Shown here piece after piece: positions 1,918-11,455 of a stretch of 12,945 nucleotides of DNA. This DNA is from Candidatus Heimdallarchaeota archaeon B3_Heim. GTDB taxonomy: Archaea > Asgardarchaeota > Heimdallarchaeia > Hodarchaeales > Hodarchaeaceae. The notes under the pieces are model-generated. The model was not told where the DNA came from, did no database searches, and saw nothing but the letters and a program-made list of their open reading frames with translations. The stretch lies in the NCBI GenBank assembly GCA_003144275.1, contig NJBF01000067.1, positions 1-12,945 on the forward strand, written 5' to 3'. Within the stretch, counting starts at the first letter, position 1; each line of letters starts with the position of its first letter. The translations under genes and the position numbers were made by a program.

Positions 1918-2961
1918 GTGCAAGGGATTATGACATTTCAATTAGACGTATCAAAATTAGATAATTTTGGAGAGATCTCGGGAGCAGATTTCATCTTGGT
2001 GACAACTGATGAACTCGCTAGCAAACTAGATTTAGTGGATACAAAAAAAGCTTACTCATCGCTTATTAAAGAATGTGTGACAAACTACAACCAATTTGAA
2101 GAAGCGCTTAGCTCCAAATTTCCAGAAAAAGCTCACATCTTGGTAGTTTTACCGTCAATATATGTAGCTTCCCCTCCCCCTGAAGTTTTAGGTAAGTACC
2201 GCAAACTTGCAACACTTGCGTGTTTTTCTACCCCCACTTCAATTGAGTCGATATTTCATTTTCTTGAGCAGGCAACACGCACAGATTCTGCCATGCAAGA
2301 AAAGATTGCAGATCGCTTTTTCGAAGTAGGTGAATCTGCGAAACACATCAAATTTGTAAACGAAGAATATGGAACTTCAGCAGTATTTAAACATTTAAGT
2401 GATGACCTTACATGGCATGAGCAAATTGGGAAGCTAGATTGGGGAGAGCAACAACTACTGCCTTCTGGAGAGGTAAGTACTCTTCCTGTATCTGTCTTCG
2501 GTGAAGATATAAAATCAAAATTGGACCTGAATGGTGAAATCCTATTGAAAGGGCAACCTGTTTTACATGCTGGCAACGTGTCCTTTTTGAGAAAAGATCA
2601 AGACCGAATTTTTAATGCTCTCAACTCAATAACTGAACATCCCCTAAAACTTGAAGTTAAACAAGGAGAGATCCAACACGTTACTGCAATCAGCTCAAAA
2701 GGAAAGGGTTCAGCTGATATGCTGAACGCATTATTCGATGTTGACTCTCGATTTAGGACTATCATCGAATTAGGCTTTGGAATAAATACAAATCTTGAAT
2801 TGTTTCCCGGAAATCAAGCAATGAACGAGGTGTACGGAGGAAAATCAGGGGTAATTCATTATGGAATAGGCCTTTTGCCCTTTACACAATACCACATTGA
2901 CTTTATTTGTCCTGATACCAGAGTTATGGATAACAATGGAATTCCTCTAGTGGGCGAATAA
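1918..2961 (+). CDS. M29/leucyl-aminopeptidase-fold metalloprotein, CgnB/CgnE-like, paralog 2 (likely true start ATG 1930)
   Basis: Same motif series: WHEQ..PSGEV, IELGFGIN, AMNE, IHYGIG, HID. Aligns block-wise with 829-1917 (DLNGEI, DMLxxLFxVDSRFRTI). SD AAGGGA precedes ATG 1930. Confidence 0.75.
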   Translation: MQGIMTFQLDVSKLDNFGEISGADFILVTTDELASKLDLVDTKKAYSSLIKECVTNYNQFEEALSSKFPEKAHILVVLPSIYVASPPPEVLGKYRKLATLACFSTPTSIESIFHFLEQATRTDSAMQEKIADRFFEVGESAKHIKFVNEEYGTSAVFKHLSDDLTWHEQIGKLDWGEQQLLPSGEVSTLPVSVFGEDIKSKLDLNGEILLKGQPVLHAGNVSFLRKDQDRIFNALNSITEHPLKLEVKQGEIQHVTAISSKGKGSADMLNALFDVDSRFRTIIELGFGINTNLELFPGNQAMNEVYGGKSGVIHYGIGLLPFTQYHIDFICPDTRVMDNNGIPLVGE

Positions 2962-2962
2962 A

Positions 2963-4135
2963 ATGGAATACGAATTAGAGCAAGAGATTAACAATTACAA
3001 ATCATACTTCGATTTAGATGGTTATCATTATCTAAACTGCGCATACATGGGCCCCTTGGCTACTTCGACCAAAAATGAAGGAATTGCCGCAATAGAAAGA
3101 AAAACTAACCCCAAATATGTAACGAAAGAACATTTTTTTTGCCATTCCACCGAAATTAGGCAACGTTTTTCTAAGCTTATTAACGAAGACGAGCCGAGTT
3201 CAATAGCAATAATCCCTTCCGTTTCCTACGGCATGTCGATAGTAGCTAATAATGTTGATATCCGGGAAGGTCAAAAAATCATTGTTGTCGCGGATGAGAT
3301 GCCTTCGAATTATTATATTTGGTATAGGTTAGCCAAAGAGAAACACGCAGAACTCGTTGTTATTGATAAACCATCCGATGCTAATGTTCGTTCAGATGAA
3401 TGGAATCAAACCATACTATCAACTATCTCCGATTCTACTGCGATTGTATCAATTCCAAATGTACATTGGTTAGATGGTTGCCTTTTTGATCTAGCTACTA
3501 TCAGCAAGAAGATACATGAACATGGAGGCCTGTTGATTGTCGACGGAACACAATCAATAGGAGCATATCCATTTGACAATAAGATAATCAGGGCCGATGC
3601 GGTTGTGTGTGCGGGATACAAATGGCTACTCGGTCCCTATGCTATTAGTATAGCTTACTTTTCTGAAAAGTTTTGGAAAGGCAAACCGCTTGAAGAAGGA
3701 TGGTTGAATAGAAAAAATAGCAACGATTTTGAATCTCTAACAAATTATCAGGATCAATATCGGGAGGGGGCGATCAGATTTGATATGGGTCAATCAAGTA
3801 ATTTTCTTAATGGTCCGATGTTAGCAGACTCTCTAAAAAATACTGAAATTTGGACCCCTTCAAAAGTGTCTGAACATTGTGCTTCGCTGAATAGCTTATT
3901 GGTGCAAGAATTATGTGATGTGCCGATTAAAGTATTAGCTGAAGATCAGAGAGGGCCTCATTATGTTGGTTTAGAAATAGACCCAATACTCTTGGAAAAA
4001 ATCGGACCTAAATTTTCAGACAACAACGTTTCTGCGTCAGTAAGAAACGGAAATATAAGAGTTACTCCGCACATATATAATGATATCGAGGATATCAAAG
4101 CTCTCGTTAAAGTTGTAAGAAGTTCTTTAAAATAG
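2963..4135 (+). CDS. Aminotransferase class-V fold PLP-dependent enzyme (lyase/epimerase-like; probably not a cysteine desulfurase)
   Basis: YLNCAYMGP, VDGTQSIG, PLP-lysine motif CAGYKWLLGP (K220, codon 3620-3622) and RVTPHIYN. No Cys in the segment before RVTPH. Starts 1 nt after the previous stop. Confidence 0.85.
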   Translation: MEYELEQEINNYKSYFDLDGYHYLNCAYMGPLATSTKNEGIAAIERKTNPKYVTKEHFFCHSTEIRQRFSKLINEDEPSSIAIIPSVSYGMSIVANNVDIREGQKIIVVADEMPSNYYIWYRLAKEKHAELVVIDKPSDANVRSDEWNQTILSTISDSTAIVSIPNVHWLDGCLFDLATISKKIHEHGGLLIVDGTQSIGAYPFDNKIIRADAVVCAGYKWLLGPYAISIAYFSEKFWKGKPLEEGWLNRKNSNDFESLTNYQDQYREGAIRFDMGQSSNFLNGPMLADSLKNTEIWTPSKVSEHCASLNSLLVQELCDVPIKVLAEDQRGPHYVGLEIDPILLEKIGPKFSDNNVSASVRNGNIRVTPHIYNDIEDIKALVKVVRSSLK

Positions 4136-4212: not shown

Positions 4213-6159
4213 TTGGACAATTTAATCGCGGCAAACATTATGGAAAAAAAAATCTTTGGCTCAGTTATTCCAGCGCCTAACCCAACCGGTGAATTGCATT
4301 TAGGGCACTTCCTCAACCTTTCGATTCAAGATCTTTTTTGTAGATGGCGGAGAACACAAGGTTGTGATATCAAATGGGCACTTGCATTAGATCATGGAGG
4401 TTCATCCACTGAATACGTTGCCACCAAGAACGATAAAAATTACATACAAAACTGCTCAGACAGAAAGTATATCTCAAATAAAATAACATCTTGGGTTGAC
4501 GGTATAACCCCAACAATACTCGAGCAGATAGATAAAATGAACTTGATCATTGATAGCGATGAGTTTAGATCTATGGCTGACAGTAAACGTGAGTATGAGT
4601 TTTTACAGTTCATTTCTCAAATGGCAAAAAGTGGAACAATATACAAAAGTGACCGTGTAATACCGTGGTGTACTGACAGACAATCTTTTGTAGATATTGC
4701 AGATATAGTGAAAAGTGAACATACAATTTACAAATATTCATTAATTTATAAAAGTGATGAAAACGAAAAGATAACTATAGATTCTGAAGACTTAAGTCTA
4801 TTGCTTAATGAAACAATAATTTTGATGTCAGAAGATTTTTATCAACGTTTACATGGTTCGCCTAAGTTTATTACAAACCCGCTCGGAGAAAATATAAAAA
4901 TAATTGTAAGTGATAAATTAATTTCCTTATTTTCTGGTAAAGAAATTGTAAGCATAACTCCGGGCCATTGTATTAATTCTTATTTCATATCTTTATATCT
5001 CAACGAAAAGATAAGTAGGGCTTTTAACGAAGGAGGCTATATTGAAAAAGAAGGTGAATACTTCAAAGTTCATAAGGAAGATGTAGAAAAAAGGCTATTA
5101 GAAGTTCTCCAATCTAGCAATCTTGTGAGTAAAATTCAGAAGTTAAATGTCATGGCAGATACATTTCGACTCAGTGGAAAGCGTGTCGAAAGTTTGCTTT
5201 CTAGGCAATGTTTCTTTGATGTCTCATCTCTAGCAAAAGATGCTTTAGAAAAAATAAGGAAAGGCACTGTCGATATAAAGCCTTCGCTATACAAACAAGC
5301 CTTAGAAAATTACTTAGAGGAACTTAACAAACCAGTCTTTCAATCTTTCAATGAGAGCGTATTTCTTAGAGATATTTGTATTTCTCAACAACTAGTATGT
5401 GGTACGGACTTTTCGTTAAAATCAGAAGAATTACGCTTCAAAGGAGACAAGTATCTTTTGGAAACCCAGATACCAAAAGAGGAAGTATACGTTGCAACAA
5501 TGAGGCTGTCTTGTGCTTTGTGGGCATTTTCGGCACAAATGGTATATGAAAAAGAACAAGCTAAATTAGAAAACTTAGGACAAAATAGTGTGTGTGTTAC
5601 AGGTATGGATCTGACAACGTTTTGGATTGCACCTATTTTGATGATGTCAGATGAAATTGGGTTCGCTCCATTTAAAACAGTTTACATACACCCTTTAATA
5701 ACCGATACAAAAGGTCGAAAAATGAGCAAGAGTTTTGGAAACACTGAAACTCCAGATACATTGATTGACAATTATGACGTTGATTCTGTAAGGCTATCAC
5801 TTTTCCTGTCCATAGATAACTCACTTCATAGGGTTATCGTAGACAAAAGTAAAATCGACTCAGTTCACCGCAACTTAAAAGATTTTAGAGAAAAGATTGT
5901 TTCTAAAACTACAGATAAGGAAAAATTCGAAATAGATTCATTAATAAATTCAAGTACAAAAGTAGTAAATGAATCTTTGCAAGTTAGCGATATACAAAGA
6001 GCTTCATCAGAAATAGAACAACTATTGAAAGCTGTAATAAGTAATCAAAACACCCTTTCAAAAAGACAAGTTTTTGATATTGCTAATGTGATAGAACCAT
6101 TTCTTCCTGAAACATCAGAATTTCTAAACCATAGCCTTGAATCTACATTAAAGGATTAG
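4213..6159 (+). CDS. Divergent, C-terminally shortened class Ia aminoacyl-tRNA synthetase paralog (ValRS-like); alternative start ATG 4240
   Basis: PNPTGELHLGH (HLGH 4297-4308) and GRKMSKSFGN (KMSKS 5719-5733). ValRS-like blocks LDHGG, ITPGH, ICISQQL, LSCALW, VTGMD..FW and PFKTVY. About 140 aa follow KMSKS. Confidence 0.85.
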   Translation: MDNLIAANIMEKKIFGSVIPAPNPTGELHLGHFLNLSIQDLFCRWRRTQGCDIKWALALDHGGSSTEYVATKNDKNYIQNCSDRKYISNKITSWVDGITPTILEQIDKMNLIIDSDEFRSMADSKREYEFLQFISQMAKSGTIYKSDRVIPWCTDRQSFVDIADIVKSEHTIYKYSLIYKSDENEKITIDSEDLSLLLNETIILMSEDFYQRLHGSPKFITNPLGENIKIIVSDKLISLFSGKEIVSITPGHCINSYFISLYLNEKISRAFNEGGYIEKEGEYFKVHKEDVEKRLLEVLQSSNLVSKIQKLNVMADTFRLSGKRVESLLSRQCFFDVSSLAKDALEKIRKGTVDIKPSLYKQALENYLEELNKPVFQSFNESVFLRDICISQQLVCGTDFSLKSEELRFKGDKYLLETQIPKEEVYVATMRLSCALWAFSAQMVYEKEQAKLENLGQNSVCVTGMDLTTFWIAPILMMSDEIGFAPFKTVYIHPLITDTKGRKMSKSFGNTETPDTLIDNYDVDSVRLSLFLSIDNSLHRVIVDKSKIDSVHRNLKDFREKIVSKTTDKEKFEIDSLINSSTKVVNESLQVSDIQRASSEIEQLLKAVISNQNTLSKRQVFDIANVIEPFLPETSEFLNHSLESTLKD

Positions 6160-6162
6160 TAC

Positions 6163-7083
6163 ATGAAATGTTTTATTTCGGGCTTAAAATATGAAATCGG
6201 CGATATTTTTGATATAGATGAGCTTTTAGTGAGTCCTGAAGTTACTGAATCAGATATCAAAAGGTTTAGAAACCTTGGGTTAAAAAATTATTCAAAATAT
6301 GAAGGATCTCTAGCAAGCCTATATGTGAAGTCTATTTCAAGTTCAATTGAATCTAGCGGTTTCATACCAGAGTCAATTGACGCGGTTATTCCTAGTGTAA
6401 TGACAGACTCTACGCCTGAAGATGATATGGAAATGTGGAAGGCTCTACATCAGTCAGGTCTAAACTCTCCGGCGGTTTTTGGGCTAGGCTGTCAAGAGTC
6501 AGCAACATTTGGAGGGGCAATTGATTTAGCAAAGAATCTTGTCAAGTCAGGTTCTTATAAAAGAGTACTAATATTAGTTGGTGCCATACGTAATAGCATA
6601 AAAGATAGAGTTACTCTTGGAGGTGAGACTATAGTAAGTGACGGAGCAGCGAGCTGCATTGTTTCGGATCATCCTGCTCAGTTCGAAATACTATCAACAA
6701 AAGTCATATCGAACCCCAAAAAAGCAGCTTCTTACAAGAGCGACCTTAGTCATGGTTTCATGATTGATGAATCTATAAGAATGATATCGGAAATCTCGAA
6801 ACTCCTTTTAGGCGAAGCAAATTTAAAATCATGTGCTATAGATAAACTTTTTTGTACAAACGCCAATGACCCCATATATACAATGTTCTCGCACTTTTCA
6901 AATATTGACGATCATAAAGTTATTAAAGAAGGGCTTAGAAAATACGGTCATGTAAATTTATGCGATAACGCTGTAGATATCTCATCTAAAATGCAATCAG
7001 GCGGCATTTCAATGGGAGAGAACTTAATGCTGCTTAATTGGGCAAGAAACCTTTTTTCAGGTGTTTGTCTGAGATACCTATGA
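6163..7083 (+). CDS. 3-oxoacyl-ACP synthase III (FabH/thiolase-fold)-like protein with a non-canonical active site; probable carrier-protein-dependent acyltransferase
   Basis: FabH-like blocks IDAVI, FGLGCQESATFGGAIDLAKNLV, RVLILVG, SDGAASCIVS, LFCTNAN and YGHVNLCD. Ser113 sits at the usual Cys position, with TNAN for HQAN and GH for GN. Confidence 0.8.
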   Translation: MKCFISGLKYEIGDIFDIDELLVSPEVTESDIKRFRNLGLKNYSKYEGSLASLYVKSISSSIESSGFIPESIDAVIPSVMTDSTPEDDMEMWKALHQSGLNSPAVFGLGCQESATFGGAIDLAKNLVKSGSYKRVLILVGAIRNSIKDRVTLGGETIVSDGAASCIVSDHPAQFEILSTKVISNPKKAASYKSDLSHGFMIDESIRMISEISKLLLGEANLKSCAIDKLFCTNANDPIYTMFSHFSNIDDHKVIKEGLRKYGHVNLCDNAVDISSKMQSGGISMGENLMLLNWARNLFSGVCLRYL

Positions 7084-7086
7084 CTA

Positions 7087-7332
7087 TTGATAGGCTATGG
7101 AATTGATATGAAAAACGTGCTTAGAAATATTTTTAAAGAACATTTGAGTCAAAATAACATTAATGATACTTCGAATTTTTTTGACCTTGGGGGAGATTCA
7201 CTCTCAGCAGTCTTATTATTAATAAAAGTAGAAAAAGAAACTGGCATTAAAATACAAAATGAGCAGTTTTACGCAGAACCTACGATAAACGGCCTTACAG
7301 AAATATGTGAAAAAAAGAACGAAAATAAATAA
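7087..7332 (+). CDS. Stand-alone phosphopantetheine carrier protein (PCP/ACP); likely start ATG 7108
   Basis: NFFDLGGDSL (Ser codon 7198-7200) and FYAEPTINGL match the NRPS T-domain pattern FFxLGGxSL...FxxPTIxxL. Confidence 0.9.
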   Translation: MIGYGIDMKNVLRNIFKEHLSQNNINDTSNFFDLGGDSLSAVLLLIKVEKETGIKIQNEQFYAEPTINGLTEICEKKNENK

Positions 7333-7508: not shown

Positions 7509-8534
7509 ATGAAATTTACTGCTACCAGAGTTTTTACTATATCTTCGATTCTTATAGCGGCTTTGGTATTTTTTTTGGCAGAACTTCCCAAAGAGCTTGA
7601 TTTATTTGAAAGGGTTGGGACTGATAATGCTTATGTCCATGGTCATCTCTTTCACATTGGCAGCCCAATTTCAGGAATTGTCGAAAAAGTATACGTTAGT
7701 GAATTTGATTCTATCAAAGAAGGTCAGTTACTAGTAAAACTATCTGATAAGGAGCTGATAGCTAGTTTGGAAAGAACAGTTTTGGAACTAGATGTGAATA
7801 ATCAAGCAATAATTTCTTTAGATTCTGATGAAGCTCTTCAAAAGAAGATACTTGAGCAAGCTCAATCAAACCTTAAAGGTCTAAAAGAGCTGTCCGAGAT
7901 AGTAAACAGGGAAAGAAGAAGGTCAGAAGAGTTATTTAAAAGTAACGCACTTGGACAGTCGGACTTTGATGCTGCCACATTTAGAGCCAAAGAGTTGGAA
8001 AATGAGATAAAAGATGTTAGCGCACAGATTGATATAGAGTCAGCAAAGCTACAGGTTATTTATAGCAGAAAAGCCATGTTAGTCGCAGAGGGGGAAGTTC
8101 TCAGGAAAAATATTGAAGTAAAAAAGTACAACATCAATAAACTTAACATAGTAGCACCATATGAAGGAACCATTGGTAGATTACATGTTCATAGTGGTTC
8201 TTGGGTTTCAGAGGGTGACAATGTTCTATCAATTGCTGACAGTTCTGCACTTTGGGTTGAAGCTAACTTTAAAGAGTCTCAATTATTAGAAATTTCAATT
8301 GGAGACGAAGTATACATTTATGTTGACGCTATCCCTGATAGGAAGCTCTTTGGTTCAGTAAAACAAATTTCTCCAGCAACAGCTTCAGAATTTAGTTTCC
8401 TGCCCTTGAGAAAAAACTCTGGGACTTTTACCAAAACTATACAGAGAGTGCCTGTCAAAATCTCAATTGATGAAGATAACTGGAAATCAAGACTTAGAAT
8501 AGGCATGTCAGTAGAAGTGGAACTTAACAGGTGA
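7509..8534 (+). CDS. HlyD/EmrA-family membrane fusion (periplasmic adaptor) protein
   Basis: N-terminal membrane anchor, TDNAYV, lipoyl-like motif ISGIVEKVYV...GQLLVKL, coiled coil, IVAPYEG, LWVEANFKESQL and FTKTIQRVPVKI. Confidence 0.92.
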   Translation: MKFTATRVFTISSILIAALVFFLAELPKELDLFERVGTDNAYVHGHLFHIGSPISGIVEKVYVSEFDSIKEGQLLVKLSDKELIASLERTVLELDVNNQAIISLDSDEALQKKILEQAQSNLKGLKELSEIVNRERRRSEELFKSNALGQSDFDAATFRAKELENEIKDVSAQIDIESAKLQVIYSRKAMLVAEGEVLRKNIEVKKYNINKLNIVAPYEGTIGRLHVHSGSWVSEGDNVLSIADSSALWVEANFKESQLLEISIGDEVYIYVDAIPDRKLFGSVKQISPATASEFSFLPLRKNSGTFTKTIQRVPVKISIDEDNWKSRLRIGMSVEVELNR

Positions 8535-10111
8535 CTTCGCATAATTCGAGTGACAATGAACCAATCATTACTTCGCTCAGACGTACGATTGGTTTTTTTT
8601 TCATCTTGTTAGGGATGTTTGCTGCATTTTTTGATACTTATGTTACTCTCTCCATCTTCCCTCAAATTAGCGCTTCTCTTGGGGCATCTATCGAAGAAGG
8701 AAGTCGAGTCCAGTCATCATACTTGATTGCTGAAGTACTAATGATTGGACTGAGCGGCTATCTGGTTAAAAGAATGTCTCTAGCTTTCGTATTCTCCGTA
8801 TCATCGATTTTATTTTCTGTAACAAGCTATTTATGCGCTCTAGCAACCAGCATTGATCAACTAACCGTGTGTAGGTTTATACAAGGCCTCGCGGGCGGCG
8901 CTATGATCCCAACAGCATTTTCTGCAATTTATATTCTTTACAACGCAGACAAACATGCATTAGTTGGTGCGATTGCTGGCGCAATAGGAACACTAGCCCC
9001 TACACTCGCTCCTTCATTCGGTGCATATGCCGCAGAAGTATATGACTGGCGAATCATCTTCTATATAAATATATTCCCTTTGATAATAGGTGGTTTCGTT
9101 GTCTATTTAGCTTTCAAATCCGAAACCAATAAGAATCGTCCAAAATCAGAGGAAACGTTCGACTACCAAAGTTTCTTGTTTCTAATAGCGTTTGTTTTTT
9201 TAATACACTATGTCATCGATAATGGGTTGGAAAAGGGTTGGCTCGAATCTCGGGGAATATTTATATCGATAATTTTTCTATTTTTCTTATGTGTTTCCTA
9301 CCTTAATTTTTTCAGCAGAATAAATAACCCTTTAATTGAATGGCGTGTTTTTAAGAGTCAATACTTCATGTTCGGTACGGTTGTGATTTTCTTTTTCAAC
9401 TTAATTCACATAACAACATCTTTTGTGATATCAAGCTATTTTGCTGATATTGCGGGTATGGGGTCGGAATATATTGGCAAAGTTTTGCTTATTGTAGGCG
9501 TGTTTCAAATTCTATGTTCACCGATAGCTCCCTATCTTGCAAGCAAGATAGGCTATGAGACAACGTTAATAACAGGTTTAGTAGTACTTTTTCTATCTAT
9601 TGCTATTGATATAAATATTACTGACGAGTGGACGATCAACGATTTTTTCTTTTCGCAAGCCCTTAGGGGCTGTGTTTTTATGATTATTGCAGTTTCAGCC
9701 CAAAATCTTGCTATGAGTATGCTTCCACGCGATTTGATTAGCGACGGGAGTACAGTAATGAATATGTTTAGGGCTTTAAGCGCAGGCATCGGCATCGCTG
9801 CTATTACTTCTTCGTTGTTGTATTGGAAAGATAAATATTATTCGGATACTACTATTTTCTTAGATTCTCAAAAAACAAATAACGCTTATCAATTCATCAA
9901 CAATTCTATAATTCGCTCCGAAAATCATATAACACCCATCGAAATAGAAAGATATATAGCATATCGGGTAGAAATAGATTCGTCAGTTTTGGCATATTCA
10001 AATACATTTTTTGGTTTAGCAGCCCTAACATTTTTATTATGCCTTTTTTCTGCGCTTTTCTTGATTTTCGTTAAAACGAAAAGTTTAAAGTCTGGCAAGG
10101 TACTTATCTAA
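8531..10111 (+). CDS. EmrB/QacA-subfamily (DHA2) MFS efflux transporter
   Basis: 526-aa polytopic hydrophobic protein with SYLIAEV, CRFIQGLAGGAMIP, PTLAPSFG and WRIIFYINI. GTG start overlaps the HlyD stop (GTGA). Confidence 0.92.
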   Translation: MTSHNSSDNEPIITSLRRTIGFFFILLGMFAAFFDTYVTLSIFPQISASLGASIEEGSRVQSSYLIAEVLMIGLSGYLVKRMSLAFVFSVSSILFSVTSYLCALATSIDQLTVCRFIQGLAGGAMIPTAFSAIYILYNADKHALVGAIAGAIGTLAPTLAPSFGAYAAEVYDWRIIFYINIFPLIIGGFVVYLAFKSETNKNRPKSEETFDYQSFLFLIAFVFLIHYVIDNGLEKGWLESRGIFISIIFLFFLCVSYLNFFSRINNPLIEWRVFKSQYFMFGTVVIFFFNLIHITTSFVISSYFADIAGMGSEYIGKVLLIVGVFQILCSPIAPYLASKIGYETTLITGLVVLFLSIAIDINITDEWTINDFFFSQALRGCVFMIIAVSAQNLAMSMLPRDLISDGSTVMNMFRALSAGIGIAAITSSLLYWKDKYYSDTTIFLDSQKTNNAYQFINNSIIRSENHITPIEIERYIAYRVEIDSSVLAYSNTFFGLAALTFLLCLFSALFLIFVKTKSLKSGKVLI

Positions 10112-10621: not shown

Positions 10622-11455
10622 TCAGGACACTTTTCTTAAGGAACTTTGTTCATACTCTACTGGCGACAGATCACCATTAGCTGTATAAAGTCGTTCTAAG
10701 TTGTAATAGCGCATATACACTGTTACATCGTTTCTCATATGCTCACGAGTTGGCTGTGGCACTTTCAGCAACCAATCATGTTTTAAACTGCCGAAGAATC
10801 TTTCAACAACAGCGTTATCCCAACAGGATCCAACATCGCCCATGCTAGCTCTCATACCATAGTTAGCTAACAGTTTACGATAATGTTTGCTGGTATATTG
10901 TGACTCTCTGTCAGAGTGAAACACTAAGCCTTTTGGAGGCTGACGTAAGTTATAAGCTTTAATCATTGCCTTGCTAACCAAATCAGTCGTCATCCGCTTA
11001 TCAATATGCCAGCCGACGATACGGCGAGAGTATAAGTCCATCACAATGGCTAGATACATCCAGCCTTCGCCAGTTCTCAAGTACGTCACATCACCAGCCC
11101 ACACCTGATTGGGCGTAACAGGGTTAAAGTTCTGATTCAGCAGATTATCTGCAACAGCATCATTGTGTTTACGTTTGGTTGTCACCTTGTAAGCCACTCG
11201 TTGAGTCACTTCTAGACCAAGTATTGCCATTAATTTCTGAACGCCATAATCACTGACGCTAAAGCCCTCACTGAGTAACTTCTTTCTAAGCTCACGATAA
11301 CCTAAGCTATTTCGGCTTCTCTTAAATATAGCCTTGGCTCTTCGATACAAATTAAGCTGCTCAGCGGTGATGATTTTAGCTGGCCGTTTAAGCCAAGCGT
11401 AATAAGCACTGCGACTTACGTTCATAATTTTGCAGAGCTTAACTACGGGAAACAC
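10622..11455 (-). CDS. IS3-family transposase OrfB (DDE domain)
   Basis: PNQVWAGDVTY, YLAIVMDLYSRRIVGW, FHSDRESQY and WDNAVVERFFGSLK; all three D-D-E residues are present. Confidence 0.93.
   Translation of the reverse strand: MFPVVKLCKIMNVSRSAYYAWLKRPAKIITAEQLNLYRRAKAIFKRSRNSLGYRELRKKLLSEGFSVSDYGVQKLMAILGLEVTQRVAYKVTTKRKHNDAVADNLLNQNFNPVTPNQVWAGDVTYLRTGEGWMYLAIVMDLYSRRIVGWHIDKRMTTDLVSKAMIKAYNLRQPPKGLVFHSDRESQYTSKHYRKLLANYGMRASMGDVGSCWDNAVVERFFGSLKHDWLLKVPQPTREHMRNDVTVYMRYYNLERLYTANGDLSPVEYEQSSLRKVS

Follow-up and report, generated by a model that had tools for sequence, protein, structure and literature searches.

Short proteins derived from valyl-tRNA synthetase and often encoded beside carrier proteins: candidate class I amino acid:carrier-protein ligases

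Ligases that derive from aminoacyl-tRNA synthetases (aaRSs) and serve an acceptor other than tRNA are a known type of enzyme. Carrier proteins are the acceptors of the SerRS-like amino acid:[carrier protein] ligases of class II (Mocibob et al., 2010, 2013, cited in PMC5370406 and PMC9437257). None of the aaRS paralogs listed in a 2022 review derives from valyl-tRNA synthetase (ValRS), and the carrier-protein ligases described there come from class II only. Among class I derivatives, the IleRS-like SbzA takes part in SB-203208 biosynthesis (PMC6331615), and natural-product pathways also contain MetRS-like hydrazine synthetase domains, as well as MetRS paralogs that Aravind et al. (2010) predicted (PMC2922099; PMC12376268; PyrN, PDB 9L8V). 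Here we analyzed a contig of 12,945 nt binned as Candidatus Heimdallarchaeota archaeon B3_Heim (NJBF01000067.1; "the window" refers to its full length), which encodes a short ValRS-like protein and, two genes downstream, a stand-alone peptidyl carrier protein (PCP). Literature searches on ValRS-like enzymes, ValRS paralogs, and carrier loaders of the aaRS-like type gave no relevant result, and a ValRS-derived family tied to carriers is not known in the literature searched. We propose that the ValRS-like protein may be a class I-derived amino acid:carrier-protein ligase, a reading of the sequence data that we consider evenly balanced between right and wrong.

The ValRS-like protein resembles the class II ligases in having an aaRS core without a working tRNA-binding module and a small carrier encoded adjacent to it. 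As proposed, it would also share their reaction, in which an aminoacyl-AMP is formed and then a thioester on phosphopantetheine (Ppant). The class II ligases, however, have an antiparallel-sheet fold and belong to the SerRS lineage, whereas the ValRS-like protein has a class I Rossmann fold and belongs to the ValRS lineage, so that carrier-ligase activity would have arisen by convergence. Like SbzA, it is a paralog of the class Ia aaRSs that has HIGH and KMSKS motifs and is encoded in a secondary-metabolite cluster that contains carriers. SbzA differs in being a full-length IleRS-like protein that needs an Ile-tRNA donor, and the carriers of its cluster are loaded by ANL-type adenylating enzymes. 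The MetRS-like domains are likewise class I derivatives with a non-tRNA acceptor in natural-product pathways, but their parent is MetRS, they are fused to or paired with cupin domains, and their acceptor is a hydroxylamine rather than a carrier thiol.

The ancestry of the protein was assigned from profile, sequence, and structural comparisons. The reading frame has no internal stops in translation. Its true start is probably the ATG at 4240 rather than the upstream TTG (Table 1), which gives the form seen in a public-collection copy (P0002); inspection of both starts found no strong Shine-Dalgarno sequence at either. The only Pfam match was the class I catalytic domain (PF00133). PF08264 and PF10458 did not match the protein, and the AMP-binding fold (PF00501) matched neither the protein nor anything else in the window. 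In the NCBIfam search, ValRS models ranked top but scored at about one third of their cutoffs (NF004349, 254.6 bits against 704; TIGR00422, 229.8 bits against 612), and MupA and MupB were weak matches. Sequence alignment with the Thermus thermophilus ValRS (1GAX) gave an E-value of 1e-35 at 22% identity, placing residues 14-531 on residues 35-556 of the chain. 1GAX was also the best structural match (Foldseek TM 0.78) of an AlphaFold2 model of the protein (pLDDT 86.4, pTM 0.87); the PyrN structure was among the other structural matches. VIA-align superposed 599 residues with a Z-score of 32, model residues 9-646 on residues 30-698 of the 862-residue chain. The protein therefore has the body of a ValRS, including the connective peptide 1 (CP1) insertion and a shortened helical bundle. 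It shares with bacterial ValRS the fold, the HIGH and KMSKS motifs, the α-amino-binding Asp, Asp490, and Trp495, and its sequence is nested in the bacterial ValRS tree. It departs from bacterial ValRS in lacking the stem-binding and coiled-coil domains and in being encoded in a biosynthetic operon.

An earlier note on this DNA, made from the letters alone, had described a repurposed ValRS-derived adenylating enzyme with intact adenylation motifs. All of the motifs and changes it quoted (HLGH, KMSKS, TPGHCINS, ICISQQLVCG, and TMRLSC) are present in the translation. The alignment with 1GAX and a MAFFT alignment with 18 canonical ValRS sequences both place them where canonical ValRS has its motifs; ICISQQLVCG, for example, occupies residues 388-397 in place of the canonical WCISRQxWWG. 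Our comparisons bear out that description: scores far under the ValRS cutoffs, an altered valine pocket, the loss of the editing Asp residues, and the erosion or absence of the anticodon, stem-binding, and coiled-coil parts together support a repurposed class I enzyme rather than a working ValRS.

Residues needed to form the adenylate are the best preserved part of the protein. In addition to the HIGH and KMSKS residues listed in Table 1, G464, D466, D498, G501, N510, and R527 were unchanged in all family members compared, and W471 was unchanged in 15 of 16. D60, which aligns with the α-amino-binding Asp81 of 1GAX, was also kept in 15 of the 16. Invariance of these residues across a family with 25-50% identity argues for retained amino-acid activation. 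Asp466 is the equivalent of ValRS Asp490, a residue of the thiol-binding subsite (PMC5370406, Table 3). Through this subsite, canonical ValRS aminoacylates CoA and other thiols to give thioesters such as Val-S-CoA (work of Jakubowski, reviewed in PMC5370406).

The side-chain pocket has been remodeled, as the earlier note had claimed. The valine pocket reportedly consists of Pro41, Pro42, Trp456, Ile491, and Trp495 in 1GAX numbering (Fukai et al., 2000). Pro41 and Trp495 are retained in the ValRS-like protein, and the other three positions have switched family-wide, with Ala21, Arg431, and Leu467 replacing Pro42, Trp456, and Ile491, respectively. These changes point to a substrate other than valine. 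The position of Trp456 holds Arg or Lys in 12 of the 16 family members, and the basic residue there suggests that the substrate may be an amino acid with a polar or acidic side chain.

In contrast to the catalytic core, the parts that read tRNA are largely gone. Only 141 residues follow the KMSKS motif (123-174 in the family), compared with 332-389 in canonical ValRS, in line with the estimate of about 140 given in the note, and its description of the tRNA-binding C-terminus as eroded holds. One of 22 conserved canonical columns is kept there, and the model stops at about residue 698 of 1GAX, leaving approximately the last 165 residues of the chain without a counterpart in the VIA-align superposition. 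We take these missing residues to be the anticodon-stem-binding and coiled-coil domains of ValRS. The hallmark motifs of the anticodon domain were lost or deleted family-wide in the MAFFT alignment, and a PF08264 match is still present in 5 of 20 members. That both the tRNA-reading parts and the editing residues are lost argues against tRNA as the acceptor.

At the former editing site, the erosion claimed in the note was partly upheld. TPGHCINS (residues 249-256, nt 4957-4980) replaces TPAHDxxD, so that the editing residues Asp276 and Asp279 of 1GAX have become Cys253 and Ser256. The TTRPET motif is lost, and the replacing string, quoted as DSEDLS, is one residue out of register, which is immaterial: DSEDLSL occupies residues 190-196 and SEDLSL aligns with the TTRPET position. 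This second loss is confined to our protein and its nearest relative, while other family members keep PET. "Eroded" fits the editing Asp residues but not the domain as a whole, since CP1 is modeled with high confidence and carries a new GHCxxS motif that is conserved in the main clades of the family; CP1 has thus changed rather than simply decayed.

These features define a rare and previously undescribed family that, by its sequences, has a single origin from bacterial ValRS. A phmmer search of 1.84 billion cluster representatives ranked about 20 short relatives (525-740 aa) before the ordinary ValRS sequences. The 20 short sequences formed one clade in a maximum-likelihood tree (SH-aLRT 100), nested among bacterial ValRS, and the basal member (P0087) retains a recognisable anticodon domain. 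A family profile separated the members (691-836 bits) from canonical ValRS (508 bits at most). Every member found is metagenomic. Further searches did not extend the family: tblastn of 72,556 plasmid records returned canonical ValRS only, as did a profile search of 401 genomes from the GTDB order containing Alteromonas, a result that speaks for the searched genomes alone. A second protein search, word-indexed and using the family profile, gave no further members, an ESM Atlas look-up returned generic class I synthetase clusters only, and pattern scans of genome and metagenome contigs yielded no new members, the generic patterns drawing mostly canonical ValRS.

We then compared conservation by domain, using 177 columns with at least 85% conservation among 18 canonical ValRS sequences and counting a column as kept when at least 80% of 16 family members retain it. 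The Rossmann halves kept the most columns (24 of 49 in the N half and 20 of 33 in the C half with KMSKS), followed by the CP core (7 of 33), CP1 (4 of 38), and the C-terminal domain (1 of 22). Inside the family, pairwise identity averaged 0.38 and 0.50 for the Rossmann halves, 0.23 for CP1, and 0.16 for the C-terminal domain. The ValRS-like reading frame is intact in many metagenomes.

Evidence for the acceptor comes from genomic context. We recovered 13 contexts of family members (relatives P0069, P0072, P0073, P0075, P0076, P0078, and P0084 are not among them). A carrier protein or a thiolation (T) domain of a non-ribosomal peptide synthetase (NRPS) adjoins the ValRS-like gene in 7 of the 13, in five architectures. 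The window and loci L010 and L012 have a β-ketoacyl-ACP synthase III (KAS III)-like gene and a PCP, the KAS III-like orthologs following the ValRS-like gene in L010 and L012. Locus L013 has a PCP with an HpaB-family monooxygenase. L014 (relative P0008, 1481-5268) has a small carrier followed by an MBOAT protein with DltB as its best match. The P0068 contig has a PCP (a faint match) with a PhyH protein, and L099 has an NRPS module of condensation, adenylation (A), and T domains. The four architectures other than that of L099 have a stand-alone carrier of the kind normally loaded by an adenylating enzyme, and no AMP-binding gene was found on their contigs.

Several of these layouts have counterparts among stand-alone A-T-tailoring carrier systems such as DltA/DltC/DltB, SyrB1/SyrB2, and SgcC1/SgcC2/SgcC. 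The Dlt, SyrB1/SyrB2, and SgcC systems are the classical versions of the layouts seen here, in which a carrier is accompanied by a DltB-like MBOAT protein, a PhyH-family oxygenase, or an HpaB-family monooxygenase, respectively. What sets the homolog contexts apart is that the ANL-type adenylating enzyme is missing and a ValRS-like gene stands in its place. By gene content, L014 reads as a Dlt-like trio in which the ValRS-like gene occupies the place of DltA.

Taken together, a carrier-ligase pathway could run as follows. The ValRS-like enzyme would activate a non-valine amino acid with ATP, the substrate perhaps being made or modified by the co-conserved class V pyridoxal-phosphate (PLP) enzyme. 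It would then transfer the amino acid to the Ppant thiol of a carrier, here the PCP at 7087-7332, replacing an NRPS A domain. The KAS III homolog, which is DpsC-like, would move the tethered group onward or load a second acyl unit, and EmrAB would export the product. Transfer to a Ppant thiol is the most economical explanation because the equivalent of the thiol-subsite residue Asp490 is invariant and carriers adjoin the gene.

Several observations weigh against this reading. In L099, an A domain is already present to serve the T domain. Six of the 13 contexts have no carrier; several of these contigs are short, but the P0009 contigs and L097 have long carrier-free flanks. Within the main clade, a class V PLP enzyme neighbors the ValRS-like gene as regularly as a carrier does, with homologs directly upstream of the ValRS-like gene in L009, L012, L015/L016, and L099 and probably also on the P0009 contigs. 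The retention of a confidently folded CP1 is also unexpected, as a pure Ppant ligase has no obvious need of it. Finally, the DpsC-like KAS III protein of the window might itself load the PCP from acyl-CoA, by analogy with its class, freeing the ValRS-like enzyme for another acceptor. The earlier note had named the PCP as the likely acceptor; the neighboring carriers speak for this, but in the window the reasoning that nothing else could load the PCP fails, since DpsC-type proteins are a carrier-loading class. A complex prediction from paired family and PCP alignments scored 0.10 against a mark of 0.32, and we counted it neither for nor against binding.

The KAS III-like protein bears on the first alternative. 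Its Ser113 aligns with the FabH cysteine, His263 and Asp268 align with the DpsC/OxaC triad positions, and TNAN replaces the HQAN of FabH. DpsC-like Ser-His-Asp enzymes are acyltransferases that load carriers (PMC12308425), and the alignment predicts a carrier-directed acyltransferase rather than a condensing enzyme. The ValRS-like enzyme could then be an ATP-dependent amino-acid ligase with a non-carrier acceptor, candidates being a compound made by the PLP enzyme or a peptide bound by the CgnB/CgnE-like proteins, while the PCP is loaded separately by the DpsC-like acyltransferase. This alternative is somewhat unlikely in our judgment but the most probable of the rivals. The four-gene cassette of CgnB-like, CgnE-like, PLP, and ValRS-like genes recurs in the window, L015/L016, and L099 whatever stands downstream, and L009, as probably also the P0009 contigs, has the PLP and ValRS-like genes but no visible carrier. 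MshC and the MetRS-like hydrazine synthetases are precedents for aaRS-like ligases of class I that use small molecules. It leaves unexplained, however, the carriers in L013, L014, and the P0068 contig, which have no KAS III-like or PLP gene, and no acceptor can be named for it.

We consider it quite improbable that the enzyme is still tRNA-dependent, whether by charging a tRNA with a non-standard amino acid or by acting as a transferase with an aminoacyl-tRNA donor. SbzA demonstrates that a class Ia aaRS-like enzyme can be an aminoacyl-tRNA-dependent transferase (PMC6331615). CP1 and a remnant of the helical bundle persist, PF08264 is detectable in the minority of members noted above, and genes for a B3_4 domain protein and a faintly LanB-like protein lie near P0007. 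Against this, 21 of the 22 conserved C-terminal columns are lost or deleted, the last ~165 residues are absent, and the editing-site Asp residues are gone. No tRNA gene was found in the window or beside the homologs, the one exception being a tRNA-Leu, unrelated, among housekeeping genes in L097, and Pfam and NCBIfam searches of the window found no Fem, GNAT, CDPS, or PEARL partner. The invariant HIGH and KMSKS motifs indicate ATP use over pure transfer. It is highly improbable that the protein is a spare or self-resistance ValRS charging tRNA-Val, or a pseudo-enzyme in decay without a catalytic role. Resistance copies such as MupA and AgnB2 are usually set, like this ValRS-derived gene, in a biosynthetic operon with an exporter, but the scores of about a third of the ValRS cutoffs, the family-wide changes in the valine pocket, and the missing tRNA-binding C-terminus oppose a resistance copy, and catalytic residues invariant over 25-50% identity, in a frame intact across many metagenomes, oppose decay.

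If the ValRS-like protein is a carrier-protein ligase, both synthetase classes would have crossed independently from ribosomal to thiotemplate chemistry, a crossing that Jakubowski predicted from the latent thiol-aminoacylation activity of ValRS. Current mining rules for biosynthetic gene clusters would be overlooking an adenylating enzyme, since ValRS-like genes are annotated as valyl-tRNA synthetase. The family would also supply a compact catalyst, equipped with a proofreading-domain scaffold, to load carriers with unusual amino acids. In a broader version of the proposal, the ValRS-derived family would be the first amino acid:carrier-protein ligase of class I and a general replacement for NRPS A domains in at least five pathway types, with CP1, which carries the new His-Cys...Ser motif (H252, C253, S256) at its former editing site, turned from tRNA proofreading to proofreading or transthioesterification of the aminoacyl thioester. 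We regard this extended claim as quite improbable.

The features of the window are collected in Table 1.

Table 1. Coordinates of the ValRS-like gene, its motifs and domains, and neighboring features in the window. Residue numbers refer to the ValRS-like protein or, for neighboring genes, to their own products.
Feature	Position	Strand	Remarks
Tandem CgnB/CgnE-like genes	nt 829-1917 and 1918-2961	+	46-51% identity to L015 and L099 orthologs
Class V PLP enzyme	nt 2963-4135	+	PF00266 match
ValRS-derived short protein	nt 4213-6159	+	648 aa from TTG 4213; probable start ATG 4240, 639 aa
HIGH motif (HLGH)	residues 29-32, nt 4297-4308	+	H29, G31, and H32 unchanged in 16/16 family members
CP1 (former editing) domain	residues 166-335, nt 4708-5217	+	pLDDT mostly >90
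TMRLSC in place of DTWFSS	residues 429-434, nt 5497-5514	+	Arg431 at the position of pocket Trp456
Asp466, equivalent of ValRS Asp490	nt 5608-5610	+	1GAX alignment; invariant in family
KMSKS loop	residues 503-507, nt 5719-5733	+	K503, M504, and K506 invariant in family
Reduced C-terminal helical domain, remnant of anticodon-binding bundle	nt 5818-6156	+	No PF08264 match; 16% family identity
KAS III-like protein, DpsC type	nt 6163-7083	+	Ser113, His263, Asp268
Stand-alone carrier protein, 81 aa, GGDSL	nt 7087-7332	+	PF00550, E 3e-14; Ser38 at nt 7198-7200
EmrA/EmrB-type exporter pair	nt 7509-8534 and 8531-10111	+	Pfam and NCBIfam searches
IS3-family transposase	nt 10622-11455	-	84% identity to Moellerella and Providencia plasmid copies (Morganellaceae); flanks operon

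The operon genes all lie on one strand and comprise the CgnB/CgnE-like pair, the class V PLP enzyme, the ValRS-like protein, the KAS III-like protein, the carrier, EmrA, EmrB, and a small GFA-like protein. The L015 and L099 orthologs of the CgnB/CgnE-like pair have a precomputed Pfam match to CgnE_B (PF26231), and proteins of this type bind RiPP (ribosomal, post-translationally modified peptide) precursors in crocagin biosynthesis (PMC10070186). The PLP enzyme retains the PLP lysine (AGYKW) and is without the catalytic-Cys loop of SufS/IscS, so it is not a cysteine desulfurase. The serine of the carrier motif is invariant in five neighboring carriers.

Three of the homolog loci have further genes of note. 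In L009 (3386-8060), the locus of the closest relative (P0003), genes for PhyH, carbamoyltransferase, TauD, and aminotransferase proteins are convergent to the PLP/ValRS-like pair, and the oxygenases and carbamoyltransferase recall the crocagin cluster. L014 has, divergently upstream, a serine-O-acetyltransferase-like gene. Downstream of P0007 in L011 (2662-11614) are genes for a methyltransferase, a B3_4 domain protein (B3_4 being a tRNA-binding fold of the PheRS-beta type), a peptidase of family M20, and a protein of 833 aa that faintly matches the LanB N-terminal domain (Lant_dehydr_N); going by its gene set, L011 could encode a tRNA-dependent peptide pathway.

Marine metagenomes from several studies, and a subsurface metagenome from 2017, contain the operon with at least 99% identity. 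In three marine metatranscriptome runs, contigs matched pieces of the operon at the same level, three of these pieces lying within the ValRS-like gene, which is a weak hint of expression in marine samples. The metatranscriptome matches span the window from 620 to about nt 8089 and none lies further on; one DNA run covers the whole stretch.

The contig itself is probably a mis-binned bacterial element within a Heimdallarchaeota-like bin. It holds a bacterial IS3 transposase and a Gram-negative-type EmrAB, whereas the canonical ValRS of the bin (contig C88) is archaeal-type and clusters with Heimdallarchaeota proteins; the contig is also a tetranucleotide outlier, ranking 7 of 79 in the bin, and its insertion sequence occurs nowhere else in the bin. 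Having considered the canonical valS on C88 as proof of paralogy within one genome, we dropped it, as that ValRS is archaeal-type and the window genes are bacterial. The contig ends (1-127 and 12819-12945) are identical over 127 nt, which indicates either a circular element or a cycle in the assembly. In L010, transposases also fill the region upstream of the ValRS-like gene, and together with the transposase flanking the operon in the window this suggests that the biosynthetic gene cluster is mobile.

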